A DNA stretch of 64,000 nt from Anaeromyxobacter sp. (GCA_049840735.1 JASGJN010000020.1:800001-864000), one strand, 5' to 3'. Shown: positions 613 to 26,520, counted from the stretch's first letter. Numbers and translations are program-made. Notes: generated by a model not told the origin, from the letters alone.

Positions 613-687
613 GCCTGCCGAGCGTACGCTTCTGAACCTTCGGGCAGGGCATCCCTCCAGCGTGGAGGGGGACACGCCGGCAGACGC

Positions 688-1192
688 TCACTTCATCTCT
701 TGGCCCTTCTCTGCAACGAAGTCCGCTACCCACCTTGCCATCGCCCGCACGTCGATGGCGCGGCCATCCTCGACGCGCTTCGAGAATCATGGTGAGCGCG
801 TTGAGGTGGAGGCTCGTTTCGCGGAACCGCAGCGTGGGGTCGGCACCGTACTTGTCGGTCACCTCCCACCAGCTCAGCCCGTCGACCGACGCCGCCAGGG
901 CATCCCCGAACACGATCCCGAGCGACTGAAGCTCCCACGTCGCGCTCGCCGGGATGACCTTGGCATCCACGATCTTCTGGAGCAAGTCGAAGTCCCGGGG
1001 GGTGCGCGTGATCCGTTCGCCAGGGAATTGTTCGGCGACGACGCGCGCAACGAAGGAGCGCTGCGTGTCCATGCTGGCGATCAGCTCGGGAGGCAGCGTA
1101 CGGAAAGTCGTGTCCACCGAAGAAGCCCCCTTGGCTTTACCGAAGGAAATGCCCATCGCAATGCACGCCAGCAACGCGAGCCGAGAAGTCAT
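688..1192 (-). CDS. DUF3806-like protein with signal peptide (one +1 frameshift at ~786)
   Basis: DFDLLQKIVD...WELQSLGIVFGDAL...WWEVTDKYGADPTLR...LNALTMI; deleting one base at GAATC 784-788 continues as SKRVEDG to TGA at 688. Confidence 0.7.
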
Positions 1193-1275
1193 TCCGAACC
1201 CCTCAGACAACATAGCGCGGGTCTGGTCGGTCCGGGGTAGCACTGAGTCTTGCCGGCGCCTTCGCCTGCGTTCCG

Positions 1276-1329
1276 GGCGACGAGCCCGAAGGTCCACCGT
1301 CCAAAAGTCCCGTTCAGCGATCCGCCCGG
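1276..1329. repeat. ~54-bp imperfect direct repeat, copy 1
   Basis: ggcgacgagcccgaaggtccaccgtccaaaagtcccgttcagcgatccgcccgg; 47/54 identical to 2662-2715. Confidence 0.85.
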
Positions 1330-1361
1330 TGGAGCAGGAAGGGGCTCATCGCGCACCGCCG

Positions 1362-1733
1362 TCAGAAGTACCGCCCCCGCGAGATGATGAAGTCGATCTC
1401 CCCGTACTGCTCCAGCCACTGAAAGCCGTCCTCCGTCGAGCCGTCCATGAACGGTTCCAGGAACCCGAGCACATGGTCGAGCGTACCCTCGGTGAGCTGC
1501 CACGTGAAGGCATTCGGCCCAGTGCACCGGATCCCGGTTCCGCCGCCCCGCTGCACACGCACCCTACACGCATCGACGGCTTCCACTCCCGGGAGCGCCG
1601 AGAGTTCCACGCCCTCCTCCGTGAGCGTGGTGAGCGTCGCCGCTAGGGCGCGAACAACCTCGGCCTCGCTGCCGTAGAGCAGCAGCGTTGGGTTCCGGTC
1701 GGGACCTGCCTCTCCCATGAACTCCAGCTTCAT
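1362..1733 (-). CDS. Hypothetical protein (~123 aa)
   Basis: ATG at 1733 preceded by GGAGG; globular acidic sequence MKLEFMGEAGPDRNPTLLLYG...FQWLEQYGEIDFIISRGRYF. Confidence 0.65.
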   Translation of the reverse strand: MKLEFMGEAGPDRNPTLLLYGSEAEVVRALAATLTTLTEEGVELSALPGVEAVDACRVRVQRGGGTGIRCTGPNAFTWQLTEGTLDHVLGFLEPFMDGSTEDGFQWLEQYGEIDFIISRGRYF

Positions 1734-1838
1734 CCGTACCTCCACCTCGACCATGGCTCAACGTTGCAGCGCAACTCCGGTGACGATTCTCACGGTCCAG
1801 CTCCCACCGGCGTCACAACCCGCGGAAGGCCGGGGAAC

Positions 1839-2531
1839 CTACTGCGGCGACCGGATCGCGATCTTCACGGCTTCGATCTCGAGAACGTCGCCGCTCTGAA
1901 GCTCGATCTCGATCCGGCTCGCTTCGCTACCGGCGTGGATGGGGCGCGGGCCGCGCACCTCGTTCACGTATGCGCTCCCTCCCCCACCCCAGGGCTCGCG
2001 CCGGGGAGCCTTCACCAACAAGACGCCCTCTGCTGCGATGCTCACCCTTCCCGCCGCCGTCCTGAACCAGACGAGCGCTGTTCCAGCCGCAAGGTCGAGG
2101 TGCAGTTCCTCGATCACCGCGTCGTGGAGATCAGGCCCTGGCCGCCTCCATCTTGCCTGGGCAGCAGCGACCAGCTGCCGGTCTTCATCGTCGCCAGCTG
2201 ACTGCGCCAAGGCCTCTGCTCGCCGCAGGCAATCATGGGCCTCGTCGATGCGGCCAAGACGGAAGTAGACGTCAGCCAGCGCAACAAGCGTGAATGGCTC
2301 CGGACCTTCGGTGGCAATCGCCTCGTCGTAGTAGCTCGCCGCCCTCAAGAGGTTCCCGTCCTGCTCGCAGAGAAGCCCCGCGGTCTTGCCCAGCAGGGAG
2401 GTGTTTGCTGGCCTGGACGCGCTCGAACGAGTGCGCGCCAACGCTGCCTCCAGGCAAGCGACGGCTTCCCCCACCCTGCCCGCCCGAGCCAATTCAGAAG
2501 CGGCTCGAAGCGGACTGCTCTCATCTTCCAT
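1839..2531 (-). CDS. TPR-repeat protein fused to a small immunity-protein-like domain
   Basis: N-terminal TPR-like helices (EAVACLEAAL; LADVYFRLGRIDEAHDCLRRA); C-terminal LHDA...PRREPWG...VNEV...IELQSGDVLEIEA. Confidence 0.65.
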   Translation of the reverse strand: MEDESSPLRAASELARAGRVGEAVACLEAALARTRSSASRPANTSLLGKTAGLLCEQDGNLLRAASYYDEAIATEGPEPFTLVALADVYFRLGRIDEAHDCLRRAEALAQSAGDDEDRQLVAAAQARWRRPGPDLHDAVIEELHLDLAAGTALVWFRTAAGRVSIAAEGVLLVKAPRREPWGGGGSAYVNEVRGPRPIHAGSEASRIEIELQSGDVLEIEAVKIAIRSPQ

Positions 2532-2661
2532 GGCCGAGTCCCCGCCTCGAAATCCGCGCGCAACCGTCAGCGTACCAGTGGGACCAACCTCCGCGCAGAC
2601 CCGAGGCGGCTCGCATGATAGCGCGGCCGGAGCGGATCAAGCCGCGGACCAGCATGCCCTC

Positions 2662-2715
2662 GGCGACGAGCTCGAAGGTCCACCGTCTAGGAGTCCCATT
2701 CAACGATCCGCCGGG
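2662..2715. repeat. ~54-bp imperfect direct repeat, copy 2
   Basis: ggcgacgagctcgaaggtccaccgtctaggagtcccattcaacgatccgccggg; matches 1276-1329. Confidence 0.85.
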
Positions 2716-3483
2716 GGGGGCAGAAGGAGGCGGGGGAACCGGGAGGGCACCGCGCGCCGCCGCGATGGCGATGGACTGTGCCATTCGACTCATGCTCCGC
2801 CAAGCTGGACCAGCCGCGGCGCGGGGTGCGGCAGCGCGGTCGGGGGTTCTTGCCCTGCTCGCCCCCGACGCCACGGCACCCCTGCATCAAAGAAGAAGGC
2901 AGGCCGCGGGTGGTCGAAGCGCCTGCTGCATCACCTTCTGCGGAACGAGCGCTACATCGGGCGGGTGATCTGGAACCGGCGCGAGTGGGTCAAGGTGAAC
3001 GACAGCAGGCGGCGCCCTCTCATCCGGGCCCGGGAGGAGTGGCATGTCCGCGATGAGCCGGCGCTGGCCATCATCGACGCCTCGACCTGGGCCAGAAACA
3101 GCGGCCTCGCGCAAGGGCCGCAGAGCAGACCGGGGAGATTCGAGCGGCTGGAGCGGCCAGGTCCATCCAGGCCCGGATCGATAAGATCACCGAGGCGCTC
3201 GCGGGGATCGGCTACTCCGAGCCGCTGGAGGCGAAGCTGAGATCCGAGGAGGCGCGCCTGCTGGACGCACGTCAGGCGCTGGCCGCCGCGAGCAGGCCCG
3301 TCGCCGCCCCTGCCGTACCCCTGGCGTACTCCAGCAGCGCCGTCCTGGCCCTGCTGGCGAACGCCGGGGCCGCGGTGGCCTCCCGCCCCCAGAAGGCCAG
3401 GGCGCTGCGCCAGGGCGTCGTCGAGGGCATCCTGATGCAGCCCACGCCCGACGGGTATGCGGTGCGCGTGAGCCTGAAAAAGC

Positions 3484-3517
3484 TCGACCCCTCGGCTCAA
3501 GAGAGCGGAGGGGTCGA
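3484..3517 (-). terminator. Intrinsic terminator-like hairpin downstream of a tRNA 3'-end copy
   Basis: tcgacccctc...gaggggtcga 10-bp stem; on the minus strand followed by gcTTTTT. Confidence 0.6.
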
Positions 3518-3529
3518 TGACTACCAGAC

Positions 3530-3578
3530 TGGTTGCGGGGGCGCGCTCGTGACCTTGTCTGCTCCCCTGCTCTTCATG
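3530..3578. repeat. att junction: tRNA-fMet 3'-end core plus P' arm, copy 1
   Basis: tggttgcgggggc identical to 26441-26453, then gcgctcgtgaccttgtctgctcccctgctcttcatg similar to 7986-8021. Confidence 0.85.
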
Positions 3579-3707
3579 ACTCACAGGTGAGGCGGTCAGA
3601 AACGTCCGTATTCTTGCATACCTACCGACGCTTCGCGCCTCGCCACGGGCCCTAATCCGTTCGAGCCCCTGGGCGCCCCTCATTCCCGCGCCCCCGAGCG
3701 TTGGCGA

Positions 3708-3745
3708 TGTTACTATTTGTCTCCTGATACAGTCACCAGGCGACA
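3708..3745 (+). promoter_or_regulatory. Probable abiE promoter (extended -10) and inverted-repeat operator
   Basis: TGtTACTAT at 3708-3716 followed by tgtctcctg-N10-caggcgaca (3718-3745) just before the ATG; AbiEi proteins are known to autorepress via promoter inverted repeats. Confidence 0.55.
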
Positions 3746-3754
3746 TTCCGAACC

Positions 3755-4393
3755 ATGGCATCGACCTCCAAGCTCGACGCACTCCTCCGGCTCGCCCGTG
3801 CCGGGCCACTCCGTGCGCGCGACCTGGAGGGGGCCGGAATCCCCAGGACATACCTGCGGCGCCTCACCGACCGCGGCCTCCTCGAGCAGCTCGACCGGGG
3901 TCTCTATGGGCTGCCCGACGCTCCGGTGACCGAGCTTCACTCCGTCGCCCAGGTGGCGAAGCGCATCCCGCACGCGACCGTCGCTCTCCTCAGCGCGCTC
4001 CAGATCCACGGCCTCACCAGTGAGGCGCCGCACGCAGTCTGGCTCCTGATCGATCGGGGTGCGCGGACCCCACGGGTCGGCCAGCCCAGGCTCGAAGTCG
4101 TCAGGGCGAGCGGCGCGGCGCGCACACATGGCATCGAGCGCCACGTGATCGAAGGGGTGAATGTGGGTATCACCACGCCGGCGAAGACAGTCGCGGACTG
4201 CTTCAGGTACCGGCGCCACGTCGGGCTCGAGGTCGCGCTCGCGGCCCTCCGGGCGTACCTGGGTCGGCCCAAGGCCACTCGGCCGGAGCGCTCCCGGCTG
4301 CAGCGAGGCTCCCCCATCGACGCCCTCATCGAGGCGGCGAAGGCCGACCGCATCTACTCCGTGCTCCGTCCCTACCTGGAGGCGCTCGCATGA
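3755..4393 (+). CDS. abiEi: Type IV TA antitoxin, AbiEi family
   Basis: N-terminal wHTH (RARDLEGAGIPRTYLRRL...LDRGLY), LLSALQIHGLT, TTPAKTVADCFRYR; ATGA overlap with the toxin gene. Confidence 0.9.
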   Translation: MASTSKLDALLRLARAGPLRARDLEGAGIPRTYLRRLTDRGLLEQLDRGLYGLPDAPVTELHSVAQVAKRIPHATVALLSALQIHGLTSEAPHAVWLLIDRGARTPRVGQPRLEVVRASGAARTHGIERHVIEGVNVGITTPAKTVADCFRYRRHVGLEVALAALRAYLGRPKATRPERSRLQRGSPIDALIEAAKADRIYSVLRPYLEALA

Positions 4394-5310
4394 AGCGGGA
4401 GGGTCCGAACGTTGGCGCGCGCGCCCGCGTCCAGCTGCTGCGGCTGGCGAAGGAGCGCGGGGAGGACTTCCAGCTGGTCCTCTTGCGCTACGCACACGAG
4501 CGCCTGATGTATCGCCTTGCAGCCTCCCGGCACGCAGCTGCGTTCGTTCTCAAGGGAGCTGCGCTCTTCACCGTCTGGACCGGGCATCCGCACCGGGCCA
4601 CCCGTGACCTCGACCTGCTCGGCTTCGGTGATCCCTCGCAGGAGCGGCTGCGGGCTACCTTCGTCGAGGTCGCCCATCTTCCCGTTCCCGACGACGGGGT
4701 GGAATTCGACGGAGCAGGGATCGAGGTGGGGCCCATCCGCGAGGGCGAGGAGTACGGCGGCGTCCGCGTGCACCTGGTCGCGCGCATCGTCACGGCCGTC
4801 ATCCGCCTCCAGATCGACGTCGGCTTCGGGGACGCGATCACCCCTGCCGCCGTCGAGCTCGACTTCCCTCCCCTCCTCGACTTCCCAGCCCCTCGACTGC
4901 GGGCCTATCCCCGGGAAACCGTCGTCGCCGAGAAGCTCGAGGCGATGGTGAAGCTCGGCCTCGCGAACAGCCGCCTGAAGGACTTCTACGACCTCGCGGA
5001 GCTCTCTCGACTGTTCCCCTTCGACGGCGCGCTGCTAGCCGCGGCCATCCGCGCCACGTTCGAGCGGCGCGGGACCGAGCTCCCGCGAGGTCTACCCGTA
5101 GCGCTCACCTCGGCTTTCGCGGAGGACCCGCAGAAGCAGGAGCAGTGGCGCGGCTTCGTGAGGAAGGCGGGCGTCCAGGATGCCCCCAGCCTTGGCTCGA
5201 CAGTCGCGCTTGTAGCCGCGTTTGCCGGTCCAGCGCTCGCCGCTGGCGAGGGTACTACTCGATGGGCGGCGAGCTGGCCACCGGGCGGTCCGTGGATCCC
5301 GGTTCGCTAG
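4390..5310 (+). CDS. abiEii: Type IV TA toxin, AbiEii nucleotidyltransferase
   Basis: FVLKGAAL, RATRDLDLLG, LQIDVGFGD, ETVVAEKLEA, NSRLKDFYDL motifs. Confidence 0.9.
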   Translation: MKREGPNVGARARVQLLRLAKERGEDFQLVLLRYAHERLMYRLAASRHAAAFVLKGAALFTVWTGHPHRATRDLDLLGFGDPSQERLRATFVEVAHLPVPDDGVEFDGAGIEVGPIREGEEYGGVRVHLVARIVTAVIRLQIDVGFGDAITPAAVELDFPPLLDFPAPRLRAYPRETVVAEKLEAMVKLGLANSRLKDFYDLAELSRLFPFDGALLAAAIRATFERRGTELPRGLPVALTSAFAEDPQKQEQWRGFVRKAGVQDAPSLGSTVALVAAFAGPALAAGEGTTRWAASWPPGGPWIPVR

Positions 5311-5382
5311 GTCCCAAGGCGTGGTCACGGGCAAGGCCACCACGCGCAAGGAGAGCTTGTCGCGTACGGTGCACAGCCACCC

Positions 5383-6216
5383 TCACCTGCTCCGGCGCGC
5401 TGGGCGGCGCTCCTCGGCGAGCGCCAAGAGGCCAGCCACCGTGCGCTGCCCTGCCTTGGCCCTGGGACGGCTGCGCGCCTGGAAGTTCCGGAGCAGTACT
5501 GCCCCAAGCGCCAGGCTGGGGTCGTCGGCCGCGCGCCGAAGCCAGGCGTCCTTGGTCTTCGCCGGCATCGCGCCCACCCACCGGCGGAAGGCCGCACGAT
5601 CGTGGTGCGTTTCCGCGCTGCGCGTCGCCGCGGCCGCCAGGAGACAGGCATCGATCCGCAGGAGCGATGCCATCGCCTCCTGGGCCGCCGTGAGCGAGCC
5701 AAGCCCCGCCGGCACAGACGGCTCTACGGCGTCGCCGTCCAGCTCACCTTCCTGGACTGCCAGCAGCCACGCCAGGTACGCCGGGCGGAGATCGCCCGCC
5801 ATCAGCTCCGCGCGCGCTCCGGACAGGACCGCAAGCTGGGCGTCCTCGTCGTCCTCGAACTCGGGGGGCTCATCCTCGCCGCTCACCAGGTCGATCACGA
5901 GGTGTCCGACGCGCGCAGTGAGCTGCGCCGCCCGGGAACCCGGGAAGTAAGGGGCGAGCACGGCACGCTTCACGCGCGCCGCCGGGAGGCGCAGCATCAG
6001 CCGGTGGGTGCCCCAGTTCGCGAAGTACAGGTGGGCGTCGAAGTACCGCTCCAGCAACTTCGCCGGATCCGCCTTGAGGTCGCCCCAGTGGTACTCGTTC
6101 CAGAAGCGCGTCGGGGTGATGGTGGCACGGCTCGAGATGCGACGCAGGGCCGTCATCTGCCGCCCGGTCAGCGGGCGGTCCAGCGCGACGAACTCGTACC
6201 ACTGGTACTCGCTCAT
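5383..6216 (-). CDS. Conserved hypothetical protein (MSEYQWYEF family), possibly C-terminally truncated
   Basis: GGAGG RBS; MSEYQWYEFVALDRPLT...SSRATITPTRFWNEYHWGDLK...YFDAHLYFANWGTHRLMLRLP. Confidence 0.75.
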   Translation of the reverse strand: MSEYQWYEFVALDRPLTGRQMTALRRISSRATITPTRFWNEYHWGDLKADPAKLLERYFDAHLYFANWGTHRLMLRLPAARVKRAVLAPYFPGSRAAQLTARVGHLVIDLVSGEDEPPEFEDDEDAQLAVLSGARAELMAGDLRPAYLAWLLAVQEGELDGDAVEPSVPAGLGSLTAAQEAMASLLRIDACLLAAAATRSAETHHDRAAFRRWVGAMPAKTKDAWLRRAADDPSLALGAVLLRNFQARSRPRAKAGQRTVAGLLALAEERRPARRSR

Positions 6217-6324
6217 GATTTCCTCCTGGCTCGGCGCGGCTCAGGCTGCGCTACGTCCGGCGCCCCGCCTTGACAGCGGACGTTGTGTGCGCTCTAGGTC
6301 TCGCACACTACACGGAGCACGTCC

Positions 6325-7740
6325 ATGCCGTTCATCCGACGCCGCGGAAACCAGCTCGTGCTCGCCCACGGGGAACGCGAACCAGGGACAGGCAAGGTCC
6401 AGCAGCGGATCCTGTTCACGCTCTACTCACGTCCCGAGGCGCTCGCTGCCATCGGCCGCACGGATCCCCATGCCCGACACCAGTTCCGCGGCCTCATCGA
6501 GGATGCCTACCCGAAGCTCCGCTTCGACTGGAAGGCTATCGAGGGCGCCATCGCCTCCCACCTCGAGGCCCTGCCGGAGTCGGTACCGAGTACCGGACGA
6601 CCCGGCTGCTCTCCCGCTTCCGAGCCGACCTGTGCGCCTTCGCGCGTCAGCTCATCGTGGCCGAGCCACACTCGCTCCTCTCCGCGAGCCAGGTCATCGA
6701 CGAACACCGGCGGGAGCTCCATCTCATCGTGAAGCTCATCCAGGACCGGCTGCAAACGCGGCCTCCCGAGCCCAACGCCTACAACCAAGACAACCCCTGG
6801 TTCTGGCGAGCGGCGTTCCGGGGCCACGACGTTCCGGCGGATATCGAGGAGCGTGCGGCCACGCATTACGAGCGTCACGAGTTCGACGACGCCGAAACAA
6901 TCTTCCGGCTGCTGGTGGACGCGTTCGACGACTACGCCGAAGGCCACAACTATTTGGGATTGATCGCATACCAGCGCTCACGGCTCGCCGATGCCGTCGG
7001 ACACTTCCGGAAGACCGTCGAGATCGGCCGCCGGCTCTTCCCGAAGCGCGTGGCCAGATCCAGCTGGTGGACCAACCTGTCCACGCGCCCCTACATGCGC
7101 GGCCTGGGCAACCTTGCGCTGGCGCTCAACGAGAGCGGCGCCTTCGCCGAGGCCCTTGAGATATGCCGGCGACTGGAAGACGAGTGCGATGACCCAATCA
7201 CCGCCAACGCCCACCGGGCCTCCGTCTGCATGAACGCGAGCCGGTGGGCTGACGCGGCGAAGGCTGCACTCCACAATCGCAACGTCAATCCGACTGAGAG
7301 TCTGGTCGCGGGCCTTGCCCAGTTCGAGCGGGGCCAGCGCGAGGACGCGATCGTCTCCCCTCCTGCACGGCGCACTGAACAGCCCTCGCGCAGCCCAGAT
7401 GCTTGCAGGTCGGCGCACCCCGTCGCCGGAGAGTTCACTGGAGGGCCGTGACCACAACAGCGGGGTCCACCTGCGCCGCACCTTGCAGTTCTACCTGGCT
7501 GCGCGACGACGGCCCGCCCTCCGCTACCTTGCAGCGCTTCTCGATGCCCCGCAGGTCTCGGCCCTCGTCGACGAAAAGCAGGAGGCCGCGCGCCGGTGGT
7601 CCTCCTCGGGGCGGGAGGGCAAGCGGTCGGATTTCGACCGAGTGGCGGAGATGCAGACGCTCGAGTTCGCCAAAGCTCAGGCCCGGGGCCTTCCACCGAG
7701 CATCGGGGCCAGGTTCACATCCCTCCGCTCGGGAGTATGA
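6325..7740 (+). CDS. TPR-containing protein (~470 aa) split by two frameshifts (~6580, ~7357)
   Basis: Three consecutive protein-like frames: MPFIRRRGNQLVL..., YRTTRLLSRF...YAEGHNYLGLIAY...RPYMRGLGNLALAL, LLHGALNSPRAAQML...; GGAG RBS; TTGACA at 6270. Confidence 0.7.
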
Positions 7741-7970: not shown

Positions 7971-8021
7971 GTTGGTTGCGGGGGCGCGCTGGTGAGGTTG
8001 TCTGCGCCGCTCAGCTTCATG
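7971..8021. repeat. att junction (left boundary of the youngest island): core plus P' arm, copy 2
   Basis: gttggttgcgggggc (15 bp) identical to 26439-26453, then gcgctggtgaggttgtctgcgccgctcagcttcatg. Confidence 0.9.
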
Positions 8022-8464: not shown

Positions 8465-9223
8465 TCAAGGCCCCACCCCACTCGATGGCGCGCTCACGAC
8501 TAGGCGTCGGAACGCTTCTGTGACTCGGGCCTGAGCTTCTGCTGCTGACTCGTTCCAGATGCCCGCTAACACTGGAACGATCTGCGCAGTCTCCAAGGGA
8601 ACACAGGGCGACCGCGAACGGCGCCGAAGGGTCCATCCGACTCGGGCAGCAGCCGGTCCCTCGGCATCGCTGCCACCGCAGCACGGCCTCTCGCAGACGA
8701 AAGCATCGAGGGGTTCACCGAAAACCAGCAGCCCATCTCGGCGGCACGAGCAGATCTGCCGGTCAGTTCCCAGATACCAGTGAAGTACGAACTTGCCTGC
8801 GGATGGCTCTTCCTGGAGGACATCGAGGATCCCTCCAGCTGCGCCACGGCTATGCAACGAAACGATCCGCCCTCCGGCTGTTCGGCAGAGGCGCAGGATG
8901 TGCCTGAGAACGTCTTGCTGGCGCCCGAGATGCTGGCGATGCAGAGGGGATCCATCTAGCCCCACTTCTCCGACGTAGGCAGTCTTCACCAGTAATGCTT
9001 CAAACCGCGAGAGCTCGTGCTCGTGCGTCGCCACAAGTTCTGGGTGAAGGCCGACCGCGGTGCGGATCCGGCTCGCCGAAGGTACGAGCTGCGAAGTTCC
9101 GTGGAACGCAGAAGGAACTGTCGTGACCGACAGAACGTAGATGCGACGTGCAACGCACTCCCGCACGACCCACGCCGCGTCAGGGTAGAGATCGAGATGG
9201 CAGTGCAGGTCTACTACAACCAC
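8465..9223 (-). CDS. qatD: QatD, TatD-family nuclease of the Qat anti-phage system (two compensating indels at ~8752 and ~8594)
   Basis: DLHCHLDLYPD, TAVGLHPEL, VGEVGLDGS, SLHSRGA, VLHWY; middle segment GCWFSVNPSML...LLPESDGPF lies in an alternate frame. Confidence 0.9.
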   Translation of the reverse strand: MVVVDLHCHLDLYPDAAWVVRECVARRIYVLSVTTVPSAFHGTSQLVPSASRIRTAVGLHPELVATHEHELSRFEALLVKTAYVGEVGLDGSPLHRQHLGRQQDVLRHILRLCRTAGGRIVSLHSRGAAGGILDVLQEEPSAGKFVLHWYLGTDRQICSCRRDGLLVFGEPLDAFVCERPCCGGSDAEGPAAARVGWTLRRRSRSPCVPLETAQIVPVLAGIWNESAAEAQARVTEAFRRLVVSAPSSGVGP

Positions 9224-14050: not shown

Positions 14051-15403
14051 ATGGCTGACGCGCCGATTCACGAGTTCGAGAAGGTTCGGTTCTTCGCGGA
14101 GCACCTCGAGACCAAGGGCCAGCGAGTTGAGTATTCGCGGATCCGCTCCCTCGACTTCGCGCGCATCACGCAGAATTCGTCCGGCCAGGCGCACCACCAG
14201 ACGATCCTTCTGGTCGAACTTACGGACGGGTCGAAGCCTGTCGAATTCTCGGTGGTCCCGAACCGCTCGATCTTCGGGGGAGACGACTACGACGCGCGAG
14301 CCGGCGCGCTCGACGCGCTCCATACTTTCCTGGCTCGCGCGACCTATGACCAGCGACTCCGGTATTACCTCACGGAGCTAAGCGAACGCGGGTACTTCAC
14401 GTACGGCGACAAGCGATTCCATCCTGACGGAACTGTCGCGCTCGAGAACGGCCGCACGGTCTCCGTCACCGAGCACGCGCTCTCGGTTCAGCCCCACAGC
14501 ATCACGATCGAGATACCGGCGGCCAAGAAGGGACTTCAGCGATTCAAGGACTTTTGGGACTCACCAAGAGTCCAGATCCTCGCGTTCACGAACAACGACT
14601 GCATGATGGCGCTTCTCAAGCTCGTCTACGGCATCCAGTGGTTCAAGATGGATGACCTCCGGTTCGGGGCAACGAGTTTGCGAAAGCCCGGCGAGACCAC
14701 CAGGCCACCTGACCACGTACTCTTCAGCTCACCGGCACCGAGGAACCGTTCTGGGTCCGAGGCCGCTACTGATTTCCGAAACGTTGACTCAGAGCGGGTG
14801 CTCGACGCCTGCAAGGCGATGGCCGCGCACCTCGCTGACTTCGCCGCTCCACGAGTTCAGGCCTCGAAGCTGCAGTGGGGGTTCGGGTACCAGATGCTCG
14901 ACGTGAAGAGCCCCGAGGCCGTCCAGGCTTTCGCGAAGTGCCTGCCCGAATCGGCATTCCTCGGTTACTCCTTCGGCGTGCTGTGTATGCTCGCCTGCGT
15001 TCACCTGCCGGCATTCCCGGGGACCGAGGGGTATCAGAAGGCGCGAACCCTCGTCGGGACGGAACTGTGGTACCGGATGCTCGACGGGCTTCCGAAGCTC
15101 GTCCATACAGCCATGGGCGAGAAGCTGACGGAGATGATGGTTCGCACAGCCATCGCGGAGATCGACGCGGCGTTCAAGAACGTTCAGGAGTGTGCCGGCC
15201 TCATGAACGCGCATGCGGACAACCCGCTCGCGCCTCTGCAACGGGCACTCGCGAAGCGCACGGGCCTTTGGGTAGCGGACGACGCGGTAAACCTCGACCG
15301 GTCGCTCCACGACGAAACCAAGAACCTACTCGCACTGGGTGCTGGCGTCCTGGGGGTCCCGGTGAGCCCCTCGGCAGCGAAGTCGGCCAGCTTCGGCCGT
15401 TAG
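14051..15403 (+). CDS. Hypothetical protein (~450 aa, two-domain)
   Basis: GGTGAGG before ATG at 14051; protein-like composition; beta-rich N-half and helical C-half; stop codon overlaps that of the convergent ORF. Confidence 0.7.
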   Translation: MADAPIHEFEKVRFFAEHLETKGQRVEYSRIRSLDFARITQNSSGQAHHQTILLVELTDGSKPVEFSVVPNRSIFGGDDYDARAGALDALHTFLARATYDQRLRYYLTELSERGYFTYGDKRFHPDGTVALENGRTVSVTEHALSVQPHSITIEIPAAKKGLQRFKDFWDSPRVQILAFTNNDCMMALLKLVYGIQWFKMDDLRFGATSLRKPGETTRPPDHVLFSSPAPRNRSGSEAATDFRNVDSERVLDACKAMAAHLADFAAPRVQASKLQWGFGYQMLDVKSPEAVQAFAKCLPESAFLGYSFGVLCMLACVHLPAFPGTEGYQKARTLVGTELWYRMLDGLPKLVHTAMGEKLTEMMVRTAIAEIDAAFKNVQECAGLMNAHADNPLAPLQRALAKRTGLWVADDAVNLDRSLHDETKNLLALGAGVLGVPVSPSAAKSASFGR

Positions 15404-16032
15404 TAGAAGCGGAGACGTGCTTCCCACTGCAGCGCGGAAGCACGGTCAGATGCTTCCCTCCGAACGGCTTCAAGCGCCCCGGGCCGGTAACGGTAGCTCG
15501 AGCACCGACTGTTGTAATCCTGGACGTACCTGTTGAACGTATCAACCCGGCCATTGTTGGTCACCAGCGGCTTCATGTATCCGATCCGCTCGTCCTCGAA
15601 GATGCAGTAGCGGAGTTCGCTTATCGAGAGTGACCTCCCAGACCCGACGGGCGGCTTCGTTTCCGTGGAATCCGACCTACCGTACGAGGATCGCACCCCG
15701 TCCCCGGAGTTCCCAGAAGAACTCGCCGGAGACGAGTACGACGCGCTGCCGGAGCTCGCGGTGTATCGGCTCGGTTTTGTGCTCGCCGTGTCGCACATCC
15801 AGACCAAAGCCGCGATACCCCCAACGACCCACACCTTGGCAGGGATCGCGCCAAGCAGTGCTGCCAGCCCCCCAGAGCCGTTCGCTGCGGGTCGCGGGGA
15901 TGGGGCCGGGGTCCGCGGTATCGGAGGCGGCGGTGCGCGGGCGGCCCGCTCTGCCGCATCCACGTCAGCAGCAACGTCGGACACCAGGTCAGCGAGCCCA
16001 GAGAAGCCAACGGGATCCGAGGAGCCGCTCAT
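15400..16032 (-). CDS. Single-pass membrane protein with a C-terminal two-Cys domain (gene 5 of Hsp70 operon)
   Basis: GFSGLADLVSD N-terminus, Pro linker, TM VWVVGGIAALVWMC, Ser linker, ELRYC...FNRYVQDYNSRCSSYRYR; starts 4 bp after the upstream stop. Confidence 0.75.
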   Translation of the reverse strand: MSGSSDPVGFSGLADLVSDVAADVDAAERAARAPPPPIPRTPAPSPRPAANGSGGLAALLGAIPAKVWVVGGIAALVWMCDTASTKPSRYTASSGSASYSSPASSSGNSGDGVRSSYGRSDSTETKPPVGSGRSLSISELRYCIFEDERIGYMKPLVTNNGRVDTFNRYVQDYNSRCSSYRYRPGALEAVRREASDRASALQWEARLRFY

Positions 16033-16036
16033 GAGG

Positions 16037-17098
16037 TCACCTCAACTTCCCTTGCCGCATGAGTTCCGCGAGCAACGCCGCGTTCGAAGGCACGTTCGCC
16101 ATCCTGTCCAGGGTTGCGATGTCGTTGTCTAGGAACTCGACGACGCGGGGGACCTCGGCGAAGACGGCGCGGAGCATCGAGGTCAGCCTCCGAGCGGCCC
16201 ATAGCATCGCATGCTCGTTATGTAGATCGACGGCTGTCGAGCGAACCCGGTTGACGAGCTGGATGCTCGGGGTGTGATCGATCCCCCTCGCCATCGCACT
16301 GAGCTGGATCGGTTGCGCCACCGCGTCCCAGTTTCGTACCACCTGCTCGATGCGTTCGATGAGACGATCGAGGGTTGCCCGCTGTGCTCCCTTCTTCGCC
16401 GCCGAAGTGAGAGCGCCGAGTAGCTGGCCGACGGCCACTGACTCGAGTTCCAGGAACCGCGCCGCATCAACCTCGTACGAGTCAACGAACTGGTCGACGA
16501 GCAACGGCGCATGCTGGCGCCCCTTGCCGGTCGTGCGGTCCACAATCGCGGTCACCGTCTCTACGAGTTGACGGGTCGGCATGCGGTCGAGCGCGGTGCG
16601 CACCGCAGCTACATAGAACCTGCGCTGTTCTGCGATCGCCTCCTCAACGAGGTCCTGCTGCAGAACCTCGGGCATCTCCGCCGCGGCGCGGTCCTCGTTG
16701 ATTGCGTCGAACACCTCCTCAGGATCCGTCTCGTCGTGAGCGGTGGCGAGCGTGACGATCCATTCGACGGCAGCCCCCACGGGCATGGAAGTCGTGGTGA
16801 TCGCCAGAGCAGACGCCGCAAGATTCGCCATCGCCAACGGAGGCAAGCCGTTCGCGCGGACAGCGGAAGCGGTGGCCAGATCGCGGACTAGGTTCGTGCA
16901 ACTCTCTGGATCCACCCCCGGTAGCCAGCTCACCTCAACCGAAACACGCTGCCTCGGGTTGGTGAGATCCGCACGCGCCTTTGCGCACACGTCGGAGTCC
17001 ATCATCAGCGCGCGGTCCTCGGCGAGCTGCATGATGCGGCGGCGACTGTCTCTGGTAGTGGCACCGAGGAGGTGGAAGGGGTTCTCGCGTAGGTTCAT
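16037..17098 (-). CDS. Helical protein with an N-terminal J-domain-like region lacking HPD (gene 4)
   Basis: NPFHLLGATTRDSRRRI...AKARADLTNPRQR resembles J-domain helices I, II and III; ATGA overlap with the AAA gene. Confidence 0.7.
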   Translation of the reverse strand: MNLRENPFHLLGATTRDSRRRIMQLAEDRALMMDSDVCAKARADLTNPRQRVSVEVSWLPGVDPESCTNLVRDLATASAVRANGLPPLAMANLAASALAITTTSMPVGAAVEWIVTLATAHDETDPEEVFDAINEDRAAAEMPEVLQQDLVEEAIAEQRRFYVAAVRTALDRMPTRQLVETVTAIVDRTTGKGRQHAPLLVDQFVDSYEVDAARFLELESVAVGQLLGALTSAAKKGAQRATLDRLIERIEQVVRNWDAVAQPIQLSAMARGIDHTPSIQLVNRVRSTAVDLHNEHAMLWAARRLTSMLRAVFAEVPRVVEFLDNDIATLDRMANVPSNAALLAELMRQGKLR

Positions 17099-18535
17099 GG
17101 CGTCCTGAAGCCGATGGCCGTGGGCTTCGCGTCTTCCTTCGAACGAGATGGAGCGGACTCGAGCGCCGCCTCCAAGCTGCGGAGGTCGATGGTATCGAGG
17201 CCCCGCTTGGCTGCGAGTCTCGCGCCCTCCCGCACCACGAACGCCACATCCGAAAGCGGTCGGCCGACGAGCTTCACCGCAAGAGTTGTGACGTCGACCG
17301 CAATGCCACCTGGGATCCGGGACAGAACACTCGACAGTAGCGACCGGACCTCCAACTCACCTGGCATCCCGACTTCGATGACGTGGTCGAACCTGCCGCG
17401 GCGCAAAATCGCGGGGTCGATCATCTCGATCCTGTTCGTCATCCCGATGACCAGGACGCGGTTCTCGACAGCTTCAGGCATGCGGCGGAGAAACTCCGCA
17501 ACCTCTTCAACGTGATGAAGCCCCTGCCCACCGCCCGCCTGTCGATCCGACAGGAACGACTCCATCTCATCGATCACGATAACCGAGGGCGACGCCTTGA
17601 TCGCGTCGTCGAAGACCTTCGCGATCTTCCTGCCGGTTTCGTGGATGTACGGGCTGCCGATGGTGCTCGAATCGACGGAGAAGCTAGGCCAGCCGAGGTA
17701 CTCGATCAGCCGCTCGATCGCGAACGTCTTTCCCGATCCAGGTGGGCCGTACAACGCAACCGGCGCCGGGAACTGAAGCCCCAGCGGGGCGTAGCGACTC
17801 TCGTTGTCAATCAGGTCGATGACGTGTTCGAGGAAAAAGTTCTCGAGCGCAGCGCGTCCTGGCAGCGTGAATGGCTGACGGGACGGAGAACCGGTGGGGC
17901 CAGCCTTGGGCTGCTTCCCACCACCCTCCGAGCCGGCGTTCACGAGGGTACCGCCGGCGCCGGGAACTGTGTCGGCAGCAGCGAAGCCCGCCGCATCAAG
18001 AACGCTCTTCAAGTCAGGGGTAGTCAGTCGTCCGACTAGCGAGACTAGTCGTCTGAACGACGTCGTCGAGACCCGAACTCCGCCGGTCAGCCACATCCCG
18101 AGCACTACGTCATCCGATAGCGCTGGGGCGAGGGACCAGGTCGGCAGCAGCCGCGAGATCCGCTCCACGTAGAGAGCGTCATGCAGCGGCGCATCCCGCG
18201 TGATGCGACGTGTCTCGTAAAAGGCGATGGCGAAGCTCATCGCCTCGGCCTTGTTCCACGGCCCTCGGGACTCCACTACGGGGCACACCACCTGATTTGC
18301 TGAACTCTCGAAGAAGGCGATCTGCTCGCCGGCAAACGATACGTAGCGAGGCGCAACTTGATCGAGCAGCCTTGCATCGGTCCATCGCTGCAGTAGTGCC
18401 TTCCGGACAACCAGCGCGCGTCCGCCTGAGCTTGTCTCGTACACCTGCCACCCGGGGCCCTCGAAGAGGGCCCGGCGAGACGTGTTGCCCTGTTCCAGCC
18501 GAAACCCTGAAGGCAACCAAGGATTCGATGGCCAT
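17095..18535 (-). CDS. AAA+ ATPase (classical FtsH/CDC48-like module) with an uncharacterised N-domain (gene 3); +1 indel at ~18524
   Basis: Walker A GPPGSGKT, Walker B VIVIDEME, SRH GMTNRIEMIDPAILRRGRFD; ATG at 18535 overlaps the Hsp70 stop (TGATG); removing one base gives MAIDPWLPSGFRL. Confidence 0.88.
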
Positions 18536-21033
18536 CAGCCCCTCAGGATGTTCGCGGCCTCGAACATGTCCCCACTCCTCGCGCCACTGATCCGAATCCG
18601 CGCGAGCCCCTGGACCACTTCTCGGAGTCGGTCGATTTGGTCCCCCTGCAGTGCGGCAACGCCTGCCTGGACCAGCTCAGCGAACCGCCTCCTGTCCAGG
18701 AAGTCATCCGGGGAGTCAACCATCGACTTGAACCGCCCGACGACGAACCAGTCCTGCCGCCACAGAATCTCGAATCCGCGTCCCCTCACCTCGTCGATGA
18801 TGTTCTCGAAGTCCTTGTCGCGCGTATCCACGGCCCTCTGAGCGGTCAGGAAGAGCGCATCGACAGCCTTGATCTCGGCAGGCCGCGCGTGAGGTCTGAT
18901 GAGCTTGTCAAACGAGGCCGTCAGCTCATCGAGCTCGATCTGCCGGATCTCCCTCGAGTGTTCCATTCGGACATCCGCGAGGAGCTTCTTGGCCTCAAGC
19001 ACGTCGTCGCGGGCTTGCTTCGCTGTCTCGGGATCTTGCTCTGCCGGCCTGAGCGCTGCTGCTGCCGACAGCTTCTCGCGCGCCTCGTCAATCTTGGGAT
19101 TGTCGATACGTTCGGCGAGCTTGTCGAGCCGCTCGTTCGCTTCCTCGACGTCCCTCACGATCTTCGCACCGGCCGCCGTGAAATCGACTTGCCCGTCCTG
19201 TCGCGAGTAGTAGTTCCGCCCCGAGTGAAACGAGGCACCGATCCGGGGGACCGAGACTTCGAGCGTGATGAGCCCACTGTCCGTGATCTCGTACTCGCAT
19301 ACGAGATCATCACCTGCGGCGATGACTCCGTCCTCGAAGTCCGTCCCGACGATCTTCATCGAGCCGACGAACTCGTTGTCATGGATGACATCCTTGATTT
19401 CGCCTTCCCAGAGTTTGATGTTGATCGAGCCGGAGGTCTGCGCTCGAAGCGACTCCCCCGCCTTGAATTGGGCCTTCCCTTTCTTCGGGAGTGGGTCGCC
19501 CTGCTTCAGCAGGTACTCCGAAACCGAGCGGCCTCCCATCTTGTCCAGAGCCTCGACGAAGACTGAGTGAGACGCCGGGATTGCGTCGATCGTCGCCGCC
19601 GTTCGAGCGATGACGATTCGGTTGGACTCGAGCGGTATCGATGCCCCGCTCGAATCGAACGCGAACACCTTGAACTGATGCTCTCCCTGCACTGGGAGCT
19701 GCAACTCGACGGCGGTACCGTCCGACAACGGGAGACGGCCGGAGGTCCAGCCCGTGTCGAGGCTGTCGACCTGGAACTCGGCGCCGACCGGACGGGGGCC
19801 CTCGACCTTCGCCACGACTCGAGCTTTTGCTTGCGTGGTCCTCGCGTTGAAGACGAAGGAGACCTTAACCAGCCCGGTGGCTGCGACCGACCCCTTAGAA
19901 CCCTTGCGGCTTCGGCTGGACGAGCTCCAGTCGATCGACTCGGCGAAGACCGCAGCGCCCTCCGCGACCGCGGTCATCGGGTTCACTTCCGTGCTCCCGC
20001 GGACCCCAAGCTCCTCGCAGACCCTGTCTCGCAGAGGCTTGTATTGGGTAGGACCACCGACAAATACGACCCCCCGTTTGACATCCTCCGCGCGGAAGCC
20101 CGACCTCGCCAGGGTCTCCTTCGTGGCCCGGATCGAATCGTCCACCTTTTGCGAGATGAGCCGGTCGTACTGCTGCCGCGAGATCTCGACCTCGAAGTAG
20201 ACGTCAGAACCGGAACGATCCTTGACTGCGACCTCCCGCTCGTCGAGTCGCACCACGGCGGTTTCGTTCGCGGACAGCTCGATCTTGGCCCTTTCTGTCG
20301 CCCAAGTGGCGACCTGCACCAGCTTGCGCCAAGCCGGGTCTTCAAGAAGCGCGTCCGGCAGATCGAAGTTGGAACGCAACCAGGGAGCGACAACGTCAGT
20401 AACGAGTGCCCGGTCGAAGTCGCGCCCGCCGCACATGGCGATGCCGCCGTGCGCGTGAAGCGTGACGCGGCCGCCGATGCTCTCCGCGATGGCGATGTCG
20501 AGCGTGCCGCCACCCAGGTCGTAGATGACGAAGATGCCGTCGTCGCGGTTCCCCCGCATGACGCTCATGACGGCTGCGACGGGCTCCTGCATGAGCGCGA
20601 CCTTCCCCAACTCTGCGAGTTCGGCCGCCTGGAGAGTCGCGTCCTTCTGCATCTGGCTGAACGCAGCAGGGACAGTGATCACGGTCCCTGTTTCAGGAGC
20701 CCGCCGGACCTCCTCGGGAAGGTAACCAAACAGGGTCCGGAGGATCTCCGCGGAACACTGCTCCGGGGAAAGCGTCAGGCCGGCAGCCGGCAGGGAGATT
20801 GGCGTTCCCGTACCCATCAGTCGCTTGAATCGCAGTGCCGCTGCGTCCTCGTACTTCGGTGCGCTGTCGTAGGCGCGGATGCCGACGAGACGGCCGCCGC
20901 GCTTCTGGTACAGGAGCGCGGAAGGCGTTACGTCGTTCTGCTCCGGACTCTTCCACAGCCGCACAGCCTTACCGTCGAATGTCGCGATCGCGCTGTTCGT
21001 TGTCCCGAGGTCGATTCCGACGTAGTGCCTCAT
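18535..21033 (-). CDS. Atypical Hsp70/DnaK-family protein, 832 aa (gene 2)
   Basis: [56 protein letters not shown] at 21033 overlaps the upstream stop (ATGA). Confidence 0.93.
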   Translation of the reverse strand: MRHYVGIDLGTTNSAIATFDGKAVRLWKSPEQNDVTPSALLYQKRGGRLVGIRAYDSAPKYEDAAALRFKRLMGTGTPISLPAAGLTLSPEQCSAEILRTLFGYLPEEVRRAPETGTVITVPAAFSQMQKDATLQAAELAELGKVALMQEPVAAVMSVMRGNRDDGIFVIYDLGGGTLDIAIAESIGGRVTLHAHGGIAMCGGRDFDRALVTDVVAPWLRSNFDLPDALLEDPAWRKLVQVATWATERAKIELSANETAVVRLDEREVAVKDRSGSDVYFEVEISRQQYDRLISQKVDDSIRATKETLARSGFRAEDVKRGVVFVGGPTQYKPLRDRVCEELGVRGSTEVNPMTAVAEGAAVFAESIDWSSSSRSRKGSKGSVAATGLVKVSFVFNARTTQAKARVVAKVEGPRPVGAEFQVDSLDTGWTSGRLPLSDGTAVELQLPVQGEHQFKVFAFDSSGASIPLESNRIVIARTAATIDAIPASHSVFVEALDKMGGRSVSEYLLKQGDPLPKKGKAQFKAGESLRAQTSGSINIKLWEGEIKDVIHDNEFVGSMKIVGTDFEDGVIAAGDDLVCEYEITDSGLITLEVSVPRIGASFHSGRNYYSRQDGQVDFTAAGAKIVRDVEEANERLDKLAERIDNPKIDEAREKLSAAAALRPAEQDPETAKQARDDVLEAKKLLADVRMEHSREIRQIELDELTASFDKLIRPHARPAEIKAVDALFLTAQRAVDTRDKDFENIIDEVRGRGFEILWRQDWFVVGRFKSMVDSPDDFLDRRRFAELVQAGVAALQGDQIDRLREVVQGLARIRISGARSGDMFEAANILRG

Positions 21034-21386
21034 GCATTCGCCTTCCGAAGGAGCACGGTTCCTGCCCGAACGAGCTGGCTCTCGCCCATGAGGATGGGCT
21101 CGAGCATCTGGTCGATGACGAGTGCATCGTCGGCCGCGAAGTCTCCGAGGTTCAGCGGAGTGACGGCGGCCCCGGGATCGAACGGTTGGTTCTCGACGTT
21201 TACGAGCCGCAACCCTGCGGCATCGAGCGATTCCGTCAGCTTCTTGACGTACCACCGCAACTGGCTCTCGTAGCGAGCCTTCTCGCCGGCATCGAGCCTG
21301 GCGAGCATTCTCACGAACACTCGCGTGAAGCGCCAGGACTCGACAGCCATGTCGATGAGCGCCTTGCGTTCGTTCGAATCGTTCAT
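21030..21386 (-). CDS. Short GrpE-like protein (gene 1)
   Basis: LDAAGLRLVNVENQPFDPG...IDQMLEPILMGESQLVRAGTVLL matches the GrpE head pattern; AAGGAG upstream. Confidence 0.7.
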   Translation of the reverse strand: MNDSNERKALIDMAVESWRFTRVFVRMLARLDAGEKARYESQLRWYVKKLTESLDAAGLRLVNVENQPFDPGAAVTPLNLGDFAADDALVIDQMLEPILMGESQLVRAGTVLLRKANA

Positions 21387-22019: not shown

Positions 22020-22262
22020 CTAGATGTAAGTGAGGATCAGGATATCGTCCGGGTCCCAGTGCGCCAGCACGGAGTTCTCTCGAGCGAGTTGCTGCCGCGT
22101 CTTCGCGCCCGAGGCGATCGCTGCCTCGTCCCGCGCCTTGTCCTGAGCCTTCGCGGCGCGGAAGGGCGTCATCGGGCGCGAGGGACCCACGCGACGGCCC
22201 CAGCACGACCAGTCATCTGGAGCAGTAGGGGCCCGCGTGTCGCGGGGTTTCCGGTACGCCAT
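22020..22262 (-). CDS. Small hypothetical protein (80 aa)
   Basis: ORF downstream of and co-oriented with the XRE regulator; no recognisable motif. Confidence 0.35.
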   Translation of the reverse strand: MAYRKPRDTRAPTAPDDWSCWGRRVGPSRPMTPFRAAKAQDKARDEAAIASGAKTRQQLARENSVLAHWDPDDILILTYI

Positions 22263-22330
22263 GGTTGATACGTACCACCGGCAAACTCTGCGCGCCACCA
22301 CCCCCGGAACGCCTCGCCGGCTGCGGGCGC

Positions 22331-22570
22331 CTACCTGGACCGCTCCTGCGGACCCCCGAGCAGCTCCCAGAGGTCCACCCCGATCGCCGCGCTGACCCTC
22401 AGCAGCGTCCGGATGGTCGGGTTGACGGCCCCCTGCTCCAGCCGCTGGTACCGTTTGTAGTCGATGCCGCTGCTTGCGGCGACGGCCTCTTGCGTGAGGT
22501 CCGCCCGCACTCGCGCCGCGCGGATGCGCCGCCCGACTTCCTTGAGGGCCTTCGTCTCGGTGGTCGGCAT
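22331..22570 (-). CDS. XRE-family HTH transcriptional regulator
   Basis: VGRRIRAARVRADLTQEAVAASSGIDYKRYQRLEQGAVNPTIRTLLRVSAAIGV. Confidence 0.9.
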   Translation of the reverse strand: MPTTETKALKEVGRRIRAARVRADLTQEAVAASSGIDYKRYQRLEQGAVNPTIRTLLRVSAAIGVDLWELLGGPQERSR

Positions 22571-23160: not shown

Positions 23161-23615
23161 CACCGGGCACTCGACTGAAACCGCTTCTCAGCGTTGCCGG
23201 GCGCGTGGCCACCGTCCCGGCCAAGCGACCTCCCCTGCCTTCCTCACGATCTCCCGCGACTCCCCCGTCCCTGGCTCAGTCTTCCGCCTACCCGACTGGC
23301 CTGGGGCCTCCTCACTCTCCACGCCTGACCCGGCCCCGAACTCGTCGCCTGTCTTCAGCTTAGCCACCCCGGCCTTCATCCAAGCACCCGACCACCTCGG
23401 CCCAGCCTTTCTTCCCTTCTTCCTCCCTCTCCCCTCCGACTTCCACAGGCATCCCCTGCTCGCGCCCCAACCCTGCAACTTCCATTTTCTGACACTCCCA
23501 ACACCACCCTCATCCTCCCCCTTCTCCCCTTCTCGTCATCCATCTCTCCACTACCTCACTCCTCATCCATCCTCCAATCCGACCTTCCCTCCGCTTCCTC
23601 CTGTTTCACTCACCA

Positions 23616-23676
23616 CTCACCCCGCTCCGACCCCTTACTCCAAGTCGTCGGGAGTGAGGGGTCGGAGCGGGGTGAG
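23616..23676. repeat. 26-bp inverted repeat (hairpin, 9-nt loop)
   Basis: ctcaccccgctccgaccccttactcc-aagtcgtcg-ggagtgaggggtcggagcggggtgag, one mismatch. Confidence 0.9.
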
Positions 23677-24291
23677 CCATTTCGTGCGCTTATCGCAAGT
23701 CCCGGCATGAGCAGGAACGTCGTGTGTTCTTCAGCGTTTCCCTCATCTGGCCGTCACCCTCGGTGACGCTCAGGGTGCCTACACCCCTGGCAATCCGAAT
23801 CGCCAGGGCTGTAGGCAGGCAAACGCATCCCGCAGTTGCCTGGCGTTCTGCCTGCCTACACCCCCGTTCGACGCAGAGGACGGAGCGCCGGCGGCGAGTT
23901 CGCCGCTTGCGCAACCTCGGTCGAACTTGTCGAGGCAGGCGCGGCGGAGTTCCCATTCTGTGCGCCCATGACTGGTCCCACGCCTCCCTGAACCTCGCAA
24001 TCAACCAACCACCTCTCGCTGCGGTTGATTGCGCTCGCGGGCTGGTCATGCCACGCGGGCTGGCCCGGGCCGGTGCGCGCCGAGTCCGCACCACCACCGA
24101 GCATCTGGGCCACTCCGTGGCTGCGCCCCAGCGGGTTGCGGTGGCCGCCATCCCCGGGTTGACTGCGCTCCACCTTGCCCTGGGTTCGCGAGGACCCGAT
24201 TTGTATTCTATTTGCACTACATTGAGATCACGATTGCGTGTCTCACTAACAACGATTTGACCTTTTCTGAGCCCCCGGGCAGGATGAACCG

Positions 24292-24794: not shown

Positions 24795-24798
<4 letters not shown>
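24292..24798 (+). CDS. Hypothetical protein coupled to the recombinase (candidate accessory or directionality factor)
   Basis: GTGA overlap with the recombinase start; Pro-rich N-part, compact C-part; AT-rich region at ~24195-24270 upstream. Confidence 0.5.

Positions 24799-26520
<1,722 letters not shown>

Follow-up and report, generated by a model that had tools for sequence, protein, structure and literature searches.

Several bacterial systems have been described in which an Hsp70 chaperone works beside dedicated partners, and they provide the background for the locus considered here, a cassette of five genes (g1 to g5) in a stretch of 64,000 nucleotides from Anaeromyxobacter sp. (GCA_049840735.1 JASGJN010000020.1:800001-864000), the whole of which is referred to as the window. 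The five genes encode a mini-GrpE, a divergent Hsp70, an AAA+ ATPase, a helical adaptor, and a single-pass membrane protein, respectively. The DnaK-DnaJ-GrpE system with ClpB resembles the cassette in combining an Hsp70 that has intact catalytic residues and a docked substrate domain with a GrpE homologue and an AAA+ unfoldase partner. In contrast, an insert of 100 residues precedes the linker of the cassette Hsp70, its helical tail is enlarged, and R167 is missing; the cassette GrpE is truncated, a J-domain with the HPD motif is absent, the ATPase is a single-ring Cdc48-like protein rather than ClpB, and the cassette is accessory and patchy. The specialised Hsp70 HscC of E. coli lies near two dedicated membrane-anchored co-chaperones, DjlB and DjlC, and is thought to act on membrane proteins (PMC8215388). 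DjlB and DjlC, however, are true tail-anchored J-proteins, held in the membrane by their own tails, and a private GrpE, an AAA+ ATPase, a docking tag, and variable outer domains are not described for HscC in the available parts of that source (PMC8215388).

Hsp70 proteins have also been placed in predicted conflict systems. The GAP1-N2 GTPase conflict systems include predicted operons in which Hsp70 and GrpE are combined with membrane proteins, some of them peptidoglycan-binding (Kaur et al. 2020, PMC7159879). As far as the available text goes, these are centred on TRAFAC GTPases, GAP1, and FNIII-DnaJ proteins, occur mainly in actinobacteria and firmicutes, and are not described with a Cdc48-like ATPase (PMC7159879); GTPase, GAP1, and FNIII-repeat genes are found neither among the five cassette genes nor among their island neighbours, and the gene families that recur across the loci are those of the cassette. 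The Type III CoCoNuT systems contain Hsp70-like units, CnuD and CnuCD, within predicted defence systems, but these ATPases are degenerate, belong with McrBC and nucleases, and are expected to be RNA-binding, and the portions of the account available mention neither GrpE nor membrane receptors (PMC11090510). The IetAS anti-phage system shares with the cassette a classical AAA+ ATPase in a defence context, and g3 is a weak match to IetA (E 4e-20); the match reaches 62 bits against a cut-off of 510, however, and the cassette has no S8 protease partner. In eukaryotic endoplasmic-reticulum-associated degradation (ERAD), Cdc48/p97 extracts proteins from the membrane, with the participation of Hsp70 and of membrane proteins that bear short docking motifs on their cytoplasmic side. 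The cassette likewise has a Cdc48-type ATPase, an Hsp70, and tagged membrane proteins, which is to be taken as an analogy only: it has one AAA ring with an unrelated N-domain and no ubiquitin or proteasome genes, and its tag is modelled on g4 and not on the ATPase.

The PADLOC 2.0 library (2023) has no profile that matches g1, g2, g4, or g5, and for g3 gives only weak matches to IetA and TRIP13; NCBIfam (June 2026) has no family covering the cassette. No description of it was found in full-text searches of the literature, which left out supplementary candidate tables and subscription papers. The view taken in an earlier prediction from this DNA (the original prediction), that the operon is not a recognised named system, is therefore borne out. 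As judged from sequence, the cassette is an assembly of known chaperone parts in an arrangement matched by no known system, with a testable docking code and a function that is unproven. It may be a mobile envelope-surveillance system that most likely defends against phage or other foreign machinery, a proposal that is held tentatively and falls somewhat short of an even chance.

To follow the cassette across bacteria, genomes in GTDB were scanned for relatives of g2. The scan gave 331 stretches, of which the best 80 (54-64% identity) were kept; since these are the closest of the 331, the locus counts describe one subfamily. The 80 loci lie in beta-, gamma-, and alphaproteobacteria, Desulfobacterota, Nitrospirota, Acidobacteriota, Chlorobium, Chloroflexota, and others. 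A g1 gene is directly upstream of g2 in all 80, and g3 follows g2 in 65 of the 68 loci with room for it, the three without it including two with truncated Hsp70 matches. Where there is 6 kb of room (51 loci), g4 is present in 49 and a g5-type domain in 43 (two as fusions); g4 comes first in 21 loci and g5 in 22, and extra genes are frequently inserted. Therefore, the conserved five-gene order that was to be checked across relatives holds for g1-g2-g3, but not for g4 and g5.

The cassette is real, widespread, and mobile, yet patchy. The adaptor gene g4 is found in two of 24 other genomes of the genus and in none of 16 more distant genomes of the order (several of them incomplete), and the Hsp70 gene in one of 5,426 E. 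coli genomes, where it adjoins remnants of rdrB and dptF. Twelve plasmids match g2 at E ≤ 1e-60. In the four that were inspected, the cassette is Tn7 cargo, lies between Zorya and BREX genes, is carried by a Vibrio plasmid, or has a distant form on a Sinorhizobium plasmid. The last (L084, 9715-14514) consists of a g4-membrane-two-Cys fusion, g1, and Hsp70, with no AAA gene nearby. The carrying elements include a serine-recombinase island (the window), a tyrosine-integrase island (L001), Tn7, and plasmids, and in four loci (L025, L026, L035, and L041) the cassette stands between backbone genes of conjugative elements. The expectation of a mobile, dedicated chaperone machine that brings its own GrpE-like factor and a partner anchored in the envelope agrees with this gene set, its patchiness, and the variety of its elements. 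An extended form, found in integrative and conjugative elements (ICEs) and in Tn7, has five or six more conserved genes, one of them encoding an RDD membrane protein and another a second protein with the tag (L018, L025, L026, L031, L035, L041, L050, and L081).

The g2 protein was predicted to be an 832-aa Hsp70, and this stands: it is an Hsp70 family member with intact ATPase residues. It matches Pfam HSP70 with 174 bits over residues 5-365 only, and consists of a nucleotide-binding domain (1-370), an inserted beta domain (~378-477), a linker displaced to a position after the insert, a substrate-binding beta domain (~481-603), and an enlarged helical domain (622-813). The structure model (predicted local distance difference test, pLDDT, 84.9) matches ATP-bound BiP with Z 42.7 over 464 residues at 2.8 Å (model 1-612, chain 27-530), and in it the substrate-binding beta domain is docked on the nucleotide-binding domain. 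The residues D8, K70, E150, D172, and T177 are retained in 50-51 of 51 relatives; they are the equivalents of the catalytic residues D8, K70, E171, D194, and T199 in E. coli numbering. At the position of DnaK R167, 50 of the 51 have Ala. In DnaK, this arginine bonds to D35 of the DnaJ HPD motif (PMC8215388, in the part available). As a canonical DnaK, g2 fails: it scores 175 bits in NCBIfam against a cut-off of 822, is 832 aa long against ~600-640 aa, has an insert where the linker of a DnaK comes immediately after the nucleotide-binding domain, and lacks R167. The housekeeping locus was considered as an identity for g1-g2 and rejected, since the genome's own grpE-dnaK-dnaJ lies on another contig (C21), as the original prediction had anticipated. 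The genome has more than ten Hsp70-like genes, and a second, more canonical paralogue lies in the window outside the island (42081-43559, + strand).

The g1 protein retains the helical bundle and the beta domain of GrpE but not its long N-terminal coiled coil. Aligned by hhalign with a profile of 18 canonical GrpEs, it gives P=89% over 44 columns and a score of 41, the best of 20 shuffles reaching 18.5. It has no Pfam match, and no GrpE is among the PDB sequence matches of its profile; it should therefore be called a remote homologue. The short GrpE-like gene of the original prediction is thus upheld as a remote, shortened GrpE, and it is predicted to be the nucleotide-exchange factor for g2.

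For g3, a classical AAA+ ATPase had been proposed, and the motifs and the profile and fold matches agree. Walker A, Walker B, sensor-1, and the second region of homology with its Arg finger are all intact; the best PDB profile matches are NVL, VAT, and p97 (E 1e-64 to 1e-59), and the fold match to p97 has Z 23.4 over 248 residues at 3.0 Å. By these signs the protein is a single-ring classical AAA+ ATPase, nearest to Cdc48/p97/VAT/NVL. It is not Cdc48/p97 proper, having one AAA domain in 479 aa and 89 bits in NCBIfam against a cut-off of 803. The N-terminal alpha/beta domain (~1-175) has no usable Atlas match, and the fold search matches all fall on the AAA domain. A degenerate protein-kinase fold for this domain was considered and rejected, the score against 14 kinases being 10.6 and the best shuffle 20.2.

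The g3 gene of the window has a frame problem. The TGATG overlap with g2 is present, but its ATG, as sequenced, is out of frame as a start of g3: it opens a 118-aa open reading frame (ORF; 18179-18535), and the AAA frame first opens at a TTG at 18516. Because the three closest relatives (76-88% over residues 1-190; 479-481 aa) begin at the equivalent ATG, the window gene is considered to have one extra base near its start. The qatD gene (8465-9223, - strand) of the neighbouring QatABCD system also shifts frame near codon 157 and seems to go on in another frame, through either an assembly indel or decay of the Qat system, and the genome has, at other places, two Hsp70 paralogues that are likewise split across frames. 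These cases indicate an indel-prone assembly; the extra base in g3 is probably an assembly error, with real decay as the alternative.

The g4 protein matches no known family in Pfam, PADLOC, or NCBIfam. Its profile matches 2,577 clusters (50% identity) at E ≤ 0.001, gives no meaningful match to PDB sequences, and finds none among 50,697 annotated phage records. Most relatives are longer than the 353-aa protein of the window by ~200 C-terminal residues. The protein was predicted to be J-like and helical; its N-terminus is reminiscent of a J-domain, but the likeness is weak. In an alignment with the J-domain, the two ends align with the loop deleted and the score (17.5) is below that of the best shuffle (18.2); the HPD motif is absent from the J-like region of all 249 g4-family proteins (it occurs elsewhere in three); and in the Atlas, DnaJ clusters are among the nearest that have a name, but at 0.78-0.79 they are below the usable mark. 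At most, g4 is a degenerate J-protein. Loss of HPD in g4 and of R167 in g2 is consistent with a private route of activation. Among 57 long relatives scanned, g4 is fused once to a canonical Hsp70 and once to a DnaJ C-terminal domain, which hints at a co-chaperone role, although assembly chimaeras could explain these fusions. In the fusion proteins of the g4 family (P0130, P0142, P0190, P0134, and P0249), the partner is either a canonical Hsp70 or a DnaJ C-terminal domain, or else an FGE-like domain, TPRs, or GYF_2 together with zinc ribbons.

In g5, an N-terminal tag and a Pro-rich linker precede a single membrane helix, which is followed by a two-Cys outer domain, an architecture shared by its family and in keeping with the single-pass membrane protein originally predicted. 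The window protein is a minimal form and lacks the repeat and peptidoglycan-binding domains that many relatives have: PG_binding_1 is present in 17 of 24 relatives (selected, and mostly long ones), and beyond it the relatives diverge into unrelated Cys-rich, TPR, or other repeats. A fixed inner core with hypervariable outer repeats is the pattern expected of an arms race. In an alignment of 41 tags, G9 and F10 are invariant, and G12, L13, and S18 are conserved in at least 90%. The tag also begins unrelated membrane proteins of the same operons, often two per locus; the tagged proteins form a single-pass family with a common cytoplasmic tag and interchangeable outer domains. With a tag profile built without the window's protein, g5 is the only match among the six-frame ORFs of at least 80 aa in the genome.

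Tagged proteins are present in 48 of the 58 loci with g4. The ten others comprise four with g4-membrane fusions, three with less than 2 kb of room, one with a degenerate, sub-threshold tag, and two that are unexplained. Where g4 is fused to a membrane helix and an outer domain of its own, a tagged partner is found in 0/4 loci. The pattern suggests that the tag tethers g4. The tag and g4 are modelled as a complex with a score of 0.83, the best of three controls having 0.01. Of 157 solved complexes, 116 come up to the mark set for such scores, as do 2 of 215 mismatched pairs; with the alignments made here, these counts are only roughly valid. Separate runs of the model share at least 96% of their contacts, with a partner pLDDT of 78 or more, and place the tag in a predicted groove of g4 (residues 167-179 and 208-260). 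No solved complex resembling this one was found by sequence. The 13 closest contact residues of g4 are more conserved than the domain mean (0.70 versus 0.56, p 0.02), but the full interface of 41 residues (0.52) is not. In nine of nine membrane-fused g4 proteins, the groove departs from the consensus more than the rest of the domain does, by 0.01 to 0.34, whereas unfused g4 proteins have no such deficit; the nine are related to each other and therefore not independent. Docking of the tag in the g4 groove, by which g4 would be tethered to the membrane, is supported by the complex model and by the fusions.

The positions of the genes and of the island features are listed in Table 1. As predicted, the five genes are co-oriented and joined by ATGA, TGATG, and ATGA overlaps and then a 4-bp gap, all on the minus strand, and they lie in a tRNA-integrated island 2.3 kb from QatABCD, as indicated by the tRNA-Met, the serine recombinase, and the 15-bp repeat. 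The island probably extends over ~18.5 kb from the tRNA-Met to the repeat at 7971-7985. The repeat has a genome-wide E of 0.88 and gains its weight from its position at a GC step, where GC drops from 0.67-0.71 to the 0.62-0.66 of the low-GC stretch that holds the cassette. The third-codon-position GC of the five cassette genes is 0.73-0.80, compared with 0.96-0.98 in three flanking core genes. A promoter scan gave a single weak sigma-70-like site upstream of g1 (21493-21465; 3 sites versus 1.0 expected), and terminators in the scan of the locus were at chance level; neither result was used.

Table 1. Cassette genes and island features in the window
Feature	Position	Strand	Remark
g1 mini-GrpE	21030..21386	-	118 aa
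g2 divergent Hsp70	18535..21033	-	832 aa
g3 AAA+ ATPase	17095..18535	-	open frame from 18516
g4 helical adaptor	16037..17098	-	353 aa
g5 single-pass membrane protein	15400..16032	-	210 aa
g5 docking tag (residues 6-21)	15970..16017	-	alignment of 41 tags
g6 convergent gene	14051..15403	+	450 aa
QatABCD anti-phage system	8465..13101	-	PADLOC and NCBIfam
Large serine recombinase	24795..26462	+	Pfam Resolvase, Recombinase, Zn_ribbon_recom; overlaps tRNA 3' end
tRNA-Met, integration site	26441..26517	-	ARAGORN; att core 26439-26453
15-bp direct repeat of tRNA-Met 3' end	7971..7985		probable far island end

The convergent gene g6 has no meaningful match among PDB sequences. The short g4 has no C-terminal extension, and one form of this extension is similar to the N-terminal half of g6, which phmmer matches to 10 of the 249 proteins of the g4 family (best E, within this small set, 5e-8). 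It was considered as a fixed sixth gene and rejected, there being no equivalent at the cassette in the three nearest loci (L001, L160, and L161); it is possibly a non-conserved accessory gene, either one that has been split off or one left behind when the cassette was rearranged. An XRE-type helix-turn-helix gene and, after it, a small ORF (22020-22570, - strand) lie ~1 kb upstream of g1, possibly a regulator or a toxin-antitoxin-like pair, and non-coding island DNA with strong purine skew and short inverted repeats lies at 23190-23680. Just beyond the att repeat, an AbiEii nucleotidyltransferase gene (4390-5310, + strand) and TPR and DUF3806 genes (within 587-7451) form a stretch of intermediate GC (0.67-0.71) that is possibly an older neighbouring island.

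Enrichment of defence neighbours was assessed in 25 of the 80 loci, with full flanks on contigs longer than 150 kb, against one 15-kb control window per contig. The PADLOC scan, at E ≤ 1e-20, covered proteins of at least 200 aa, 185 from the flanks and 218 from the control windows; the simple gene caller missed some genes (e.g., g5), so that both sets may be undercounted. Any match is present in 16/25 cassette flanks and 6/25 controls (p 0.01), and a match covering half the profile in 10/25 and 3/25 (p 0.05). The three controls are DnaQ-like and sigma-54 housekeeping genes; with these set aside, a post hoc choice, the counts are 10/25 and 0/25. When repeated element types are collapsed, 8/22 remain (p 0.08 versus 3/25 controls, or p 0.001 with the housekeeping matches set aside). 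The flank genes include type I restriction, Hachiman, AbiEii, an IetA-like ATPase, HEC-05, and PsyrA. The anticipated enrichment is therefore seen over random windows, but many copies in ICEs and Tn7 have no defence neighbours; the test shows residence in defence-rich islands, not defence function. In L037, L039, and L053 (also L010 and L028), type I restriction genes, the cassette, and Hachiman hamAB follow one another on the same strand, hamAB coming right after the last tagged gene.

Under the envelope-surveillance proposal, tagged receptors would watch the envelope, and g4 would clip onto their tags at the membrane. It would recruit the private Hsp70 through a non-canonical J-like contact, g1 would reset the nucleotide state of the Hsp70, and the AAA+ ring would pull on a client embedded in the membrane or extract it, much as Cdc48 does in ERAD. 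The trigger may arise in the periplasm or peptidoglycan, where damage or a foreign protein would be sensed, and the client may be the entry or assembly apparatus of an invader or the receptor itself; these last two points are the most conjectural. What the sequences show is the gene set and its mobility, an intact Hsp70 and Cdc48-like ATPase, the homology of g1 to GrpE, and the family of tagged single-pass proteins. No nuclease or other recognisable toxic effector domain is found in the cassette, and direct remodelling is therefore likelier than cell suicide. A more specific version, in which a portable ERAD-like immune machine uses swappable tagged receptors, with an HPD-R167-free Hsp70 and a Cdc48-like ring extracting the proteins of invading phages or rivals without a toxic effector, must be considered unlikely.

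A number of observations weigh against envelope surveillance in defence. Any island cargo would be expected to have more defence genes around it than random chromosome does; 15 of the 25 loci have no well-covered defence neighbour, two of these lying in ICEs; and three of the positive flanks represent one element type, collapsing which brings p to 0.08. The cassette has no effector domain, and the J-likeness of g4 does not exceed that of shuffled controls. Extraction may not be the core function, because L084 has no AAA gene. The g4 proteins of L006 and L052 end in a bare membrane helix yet keep tagged partners, and those of L051 and L080 are unfused, with room, yet have no tagged partner. The window copy itself may be impaired by the frameshift in g3.

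A somewhat unlikely alternative is that the cassette is an envelope quality-control or biogenesis machine, folding, inserting, or turning over its own tagged proteins or other envelope proteins under stress, and that the islands carry it as a general fitness trait rather than for defence. HscC offers a precedent for a membrane-targeted Hsp70 (PMC8215388, available text), the tag could equally be a substrate label, and the absence of a toxic effector and the many copies in ICEs, in Tn7 cargo, or by metabolic genes without defence neighbours suit such a role. Rapid swapping of outer domains on a fixed core fits conflict better, however, as does the repeated placement in restriction, Hachiman, Zorya, BREX, RADAR, and Qat clusters, and rarity and patchiness fit it better than they fit stress relief.

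The receptor-like topology of g5 and the specific tag-groove contact of the model would also suit a transmembrane signalling relay, in which an outside cue lets Hsp70 and AAA+ release receptor-held g4, or its C-terminal domain, in an anti-sigma-like manner; the terminal domains of g4 do vary (zinc ribbon, GYF_2, FGE-like, and TPR in single cases). Such a relay is improbable, considering that no sigma factor, kinase, or DNA-binding regulator is conserved across the loci, that permanent g4-membrane fusions exist, and that the short g4 of the window has no output domain. No less improbable is a helper of the mobile element itself, for example in entry exclusion or remodelling of the conjugation apparatus. 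The membrane location, the occurrence on plasmids, and the four loci amid conjugative backbone genes speak for it, but the cassette is carried by unrelated element types, and the window island shows no transfer genes.

One operon supplies an Hsp70 with all its partners, together with an apparent co-loss of HPD and R167 and a tag-adaptor interface that is testable at the level of residues, and the native E. coli copy (L218) makes the cassette simple to test. If the cassette is defensive, it would represent immunity by chaperone-driven membrane remodelling with swappable receptors; if it is not, it would still be an undescribed modular membrane-targeting chaperone.

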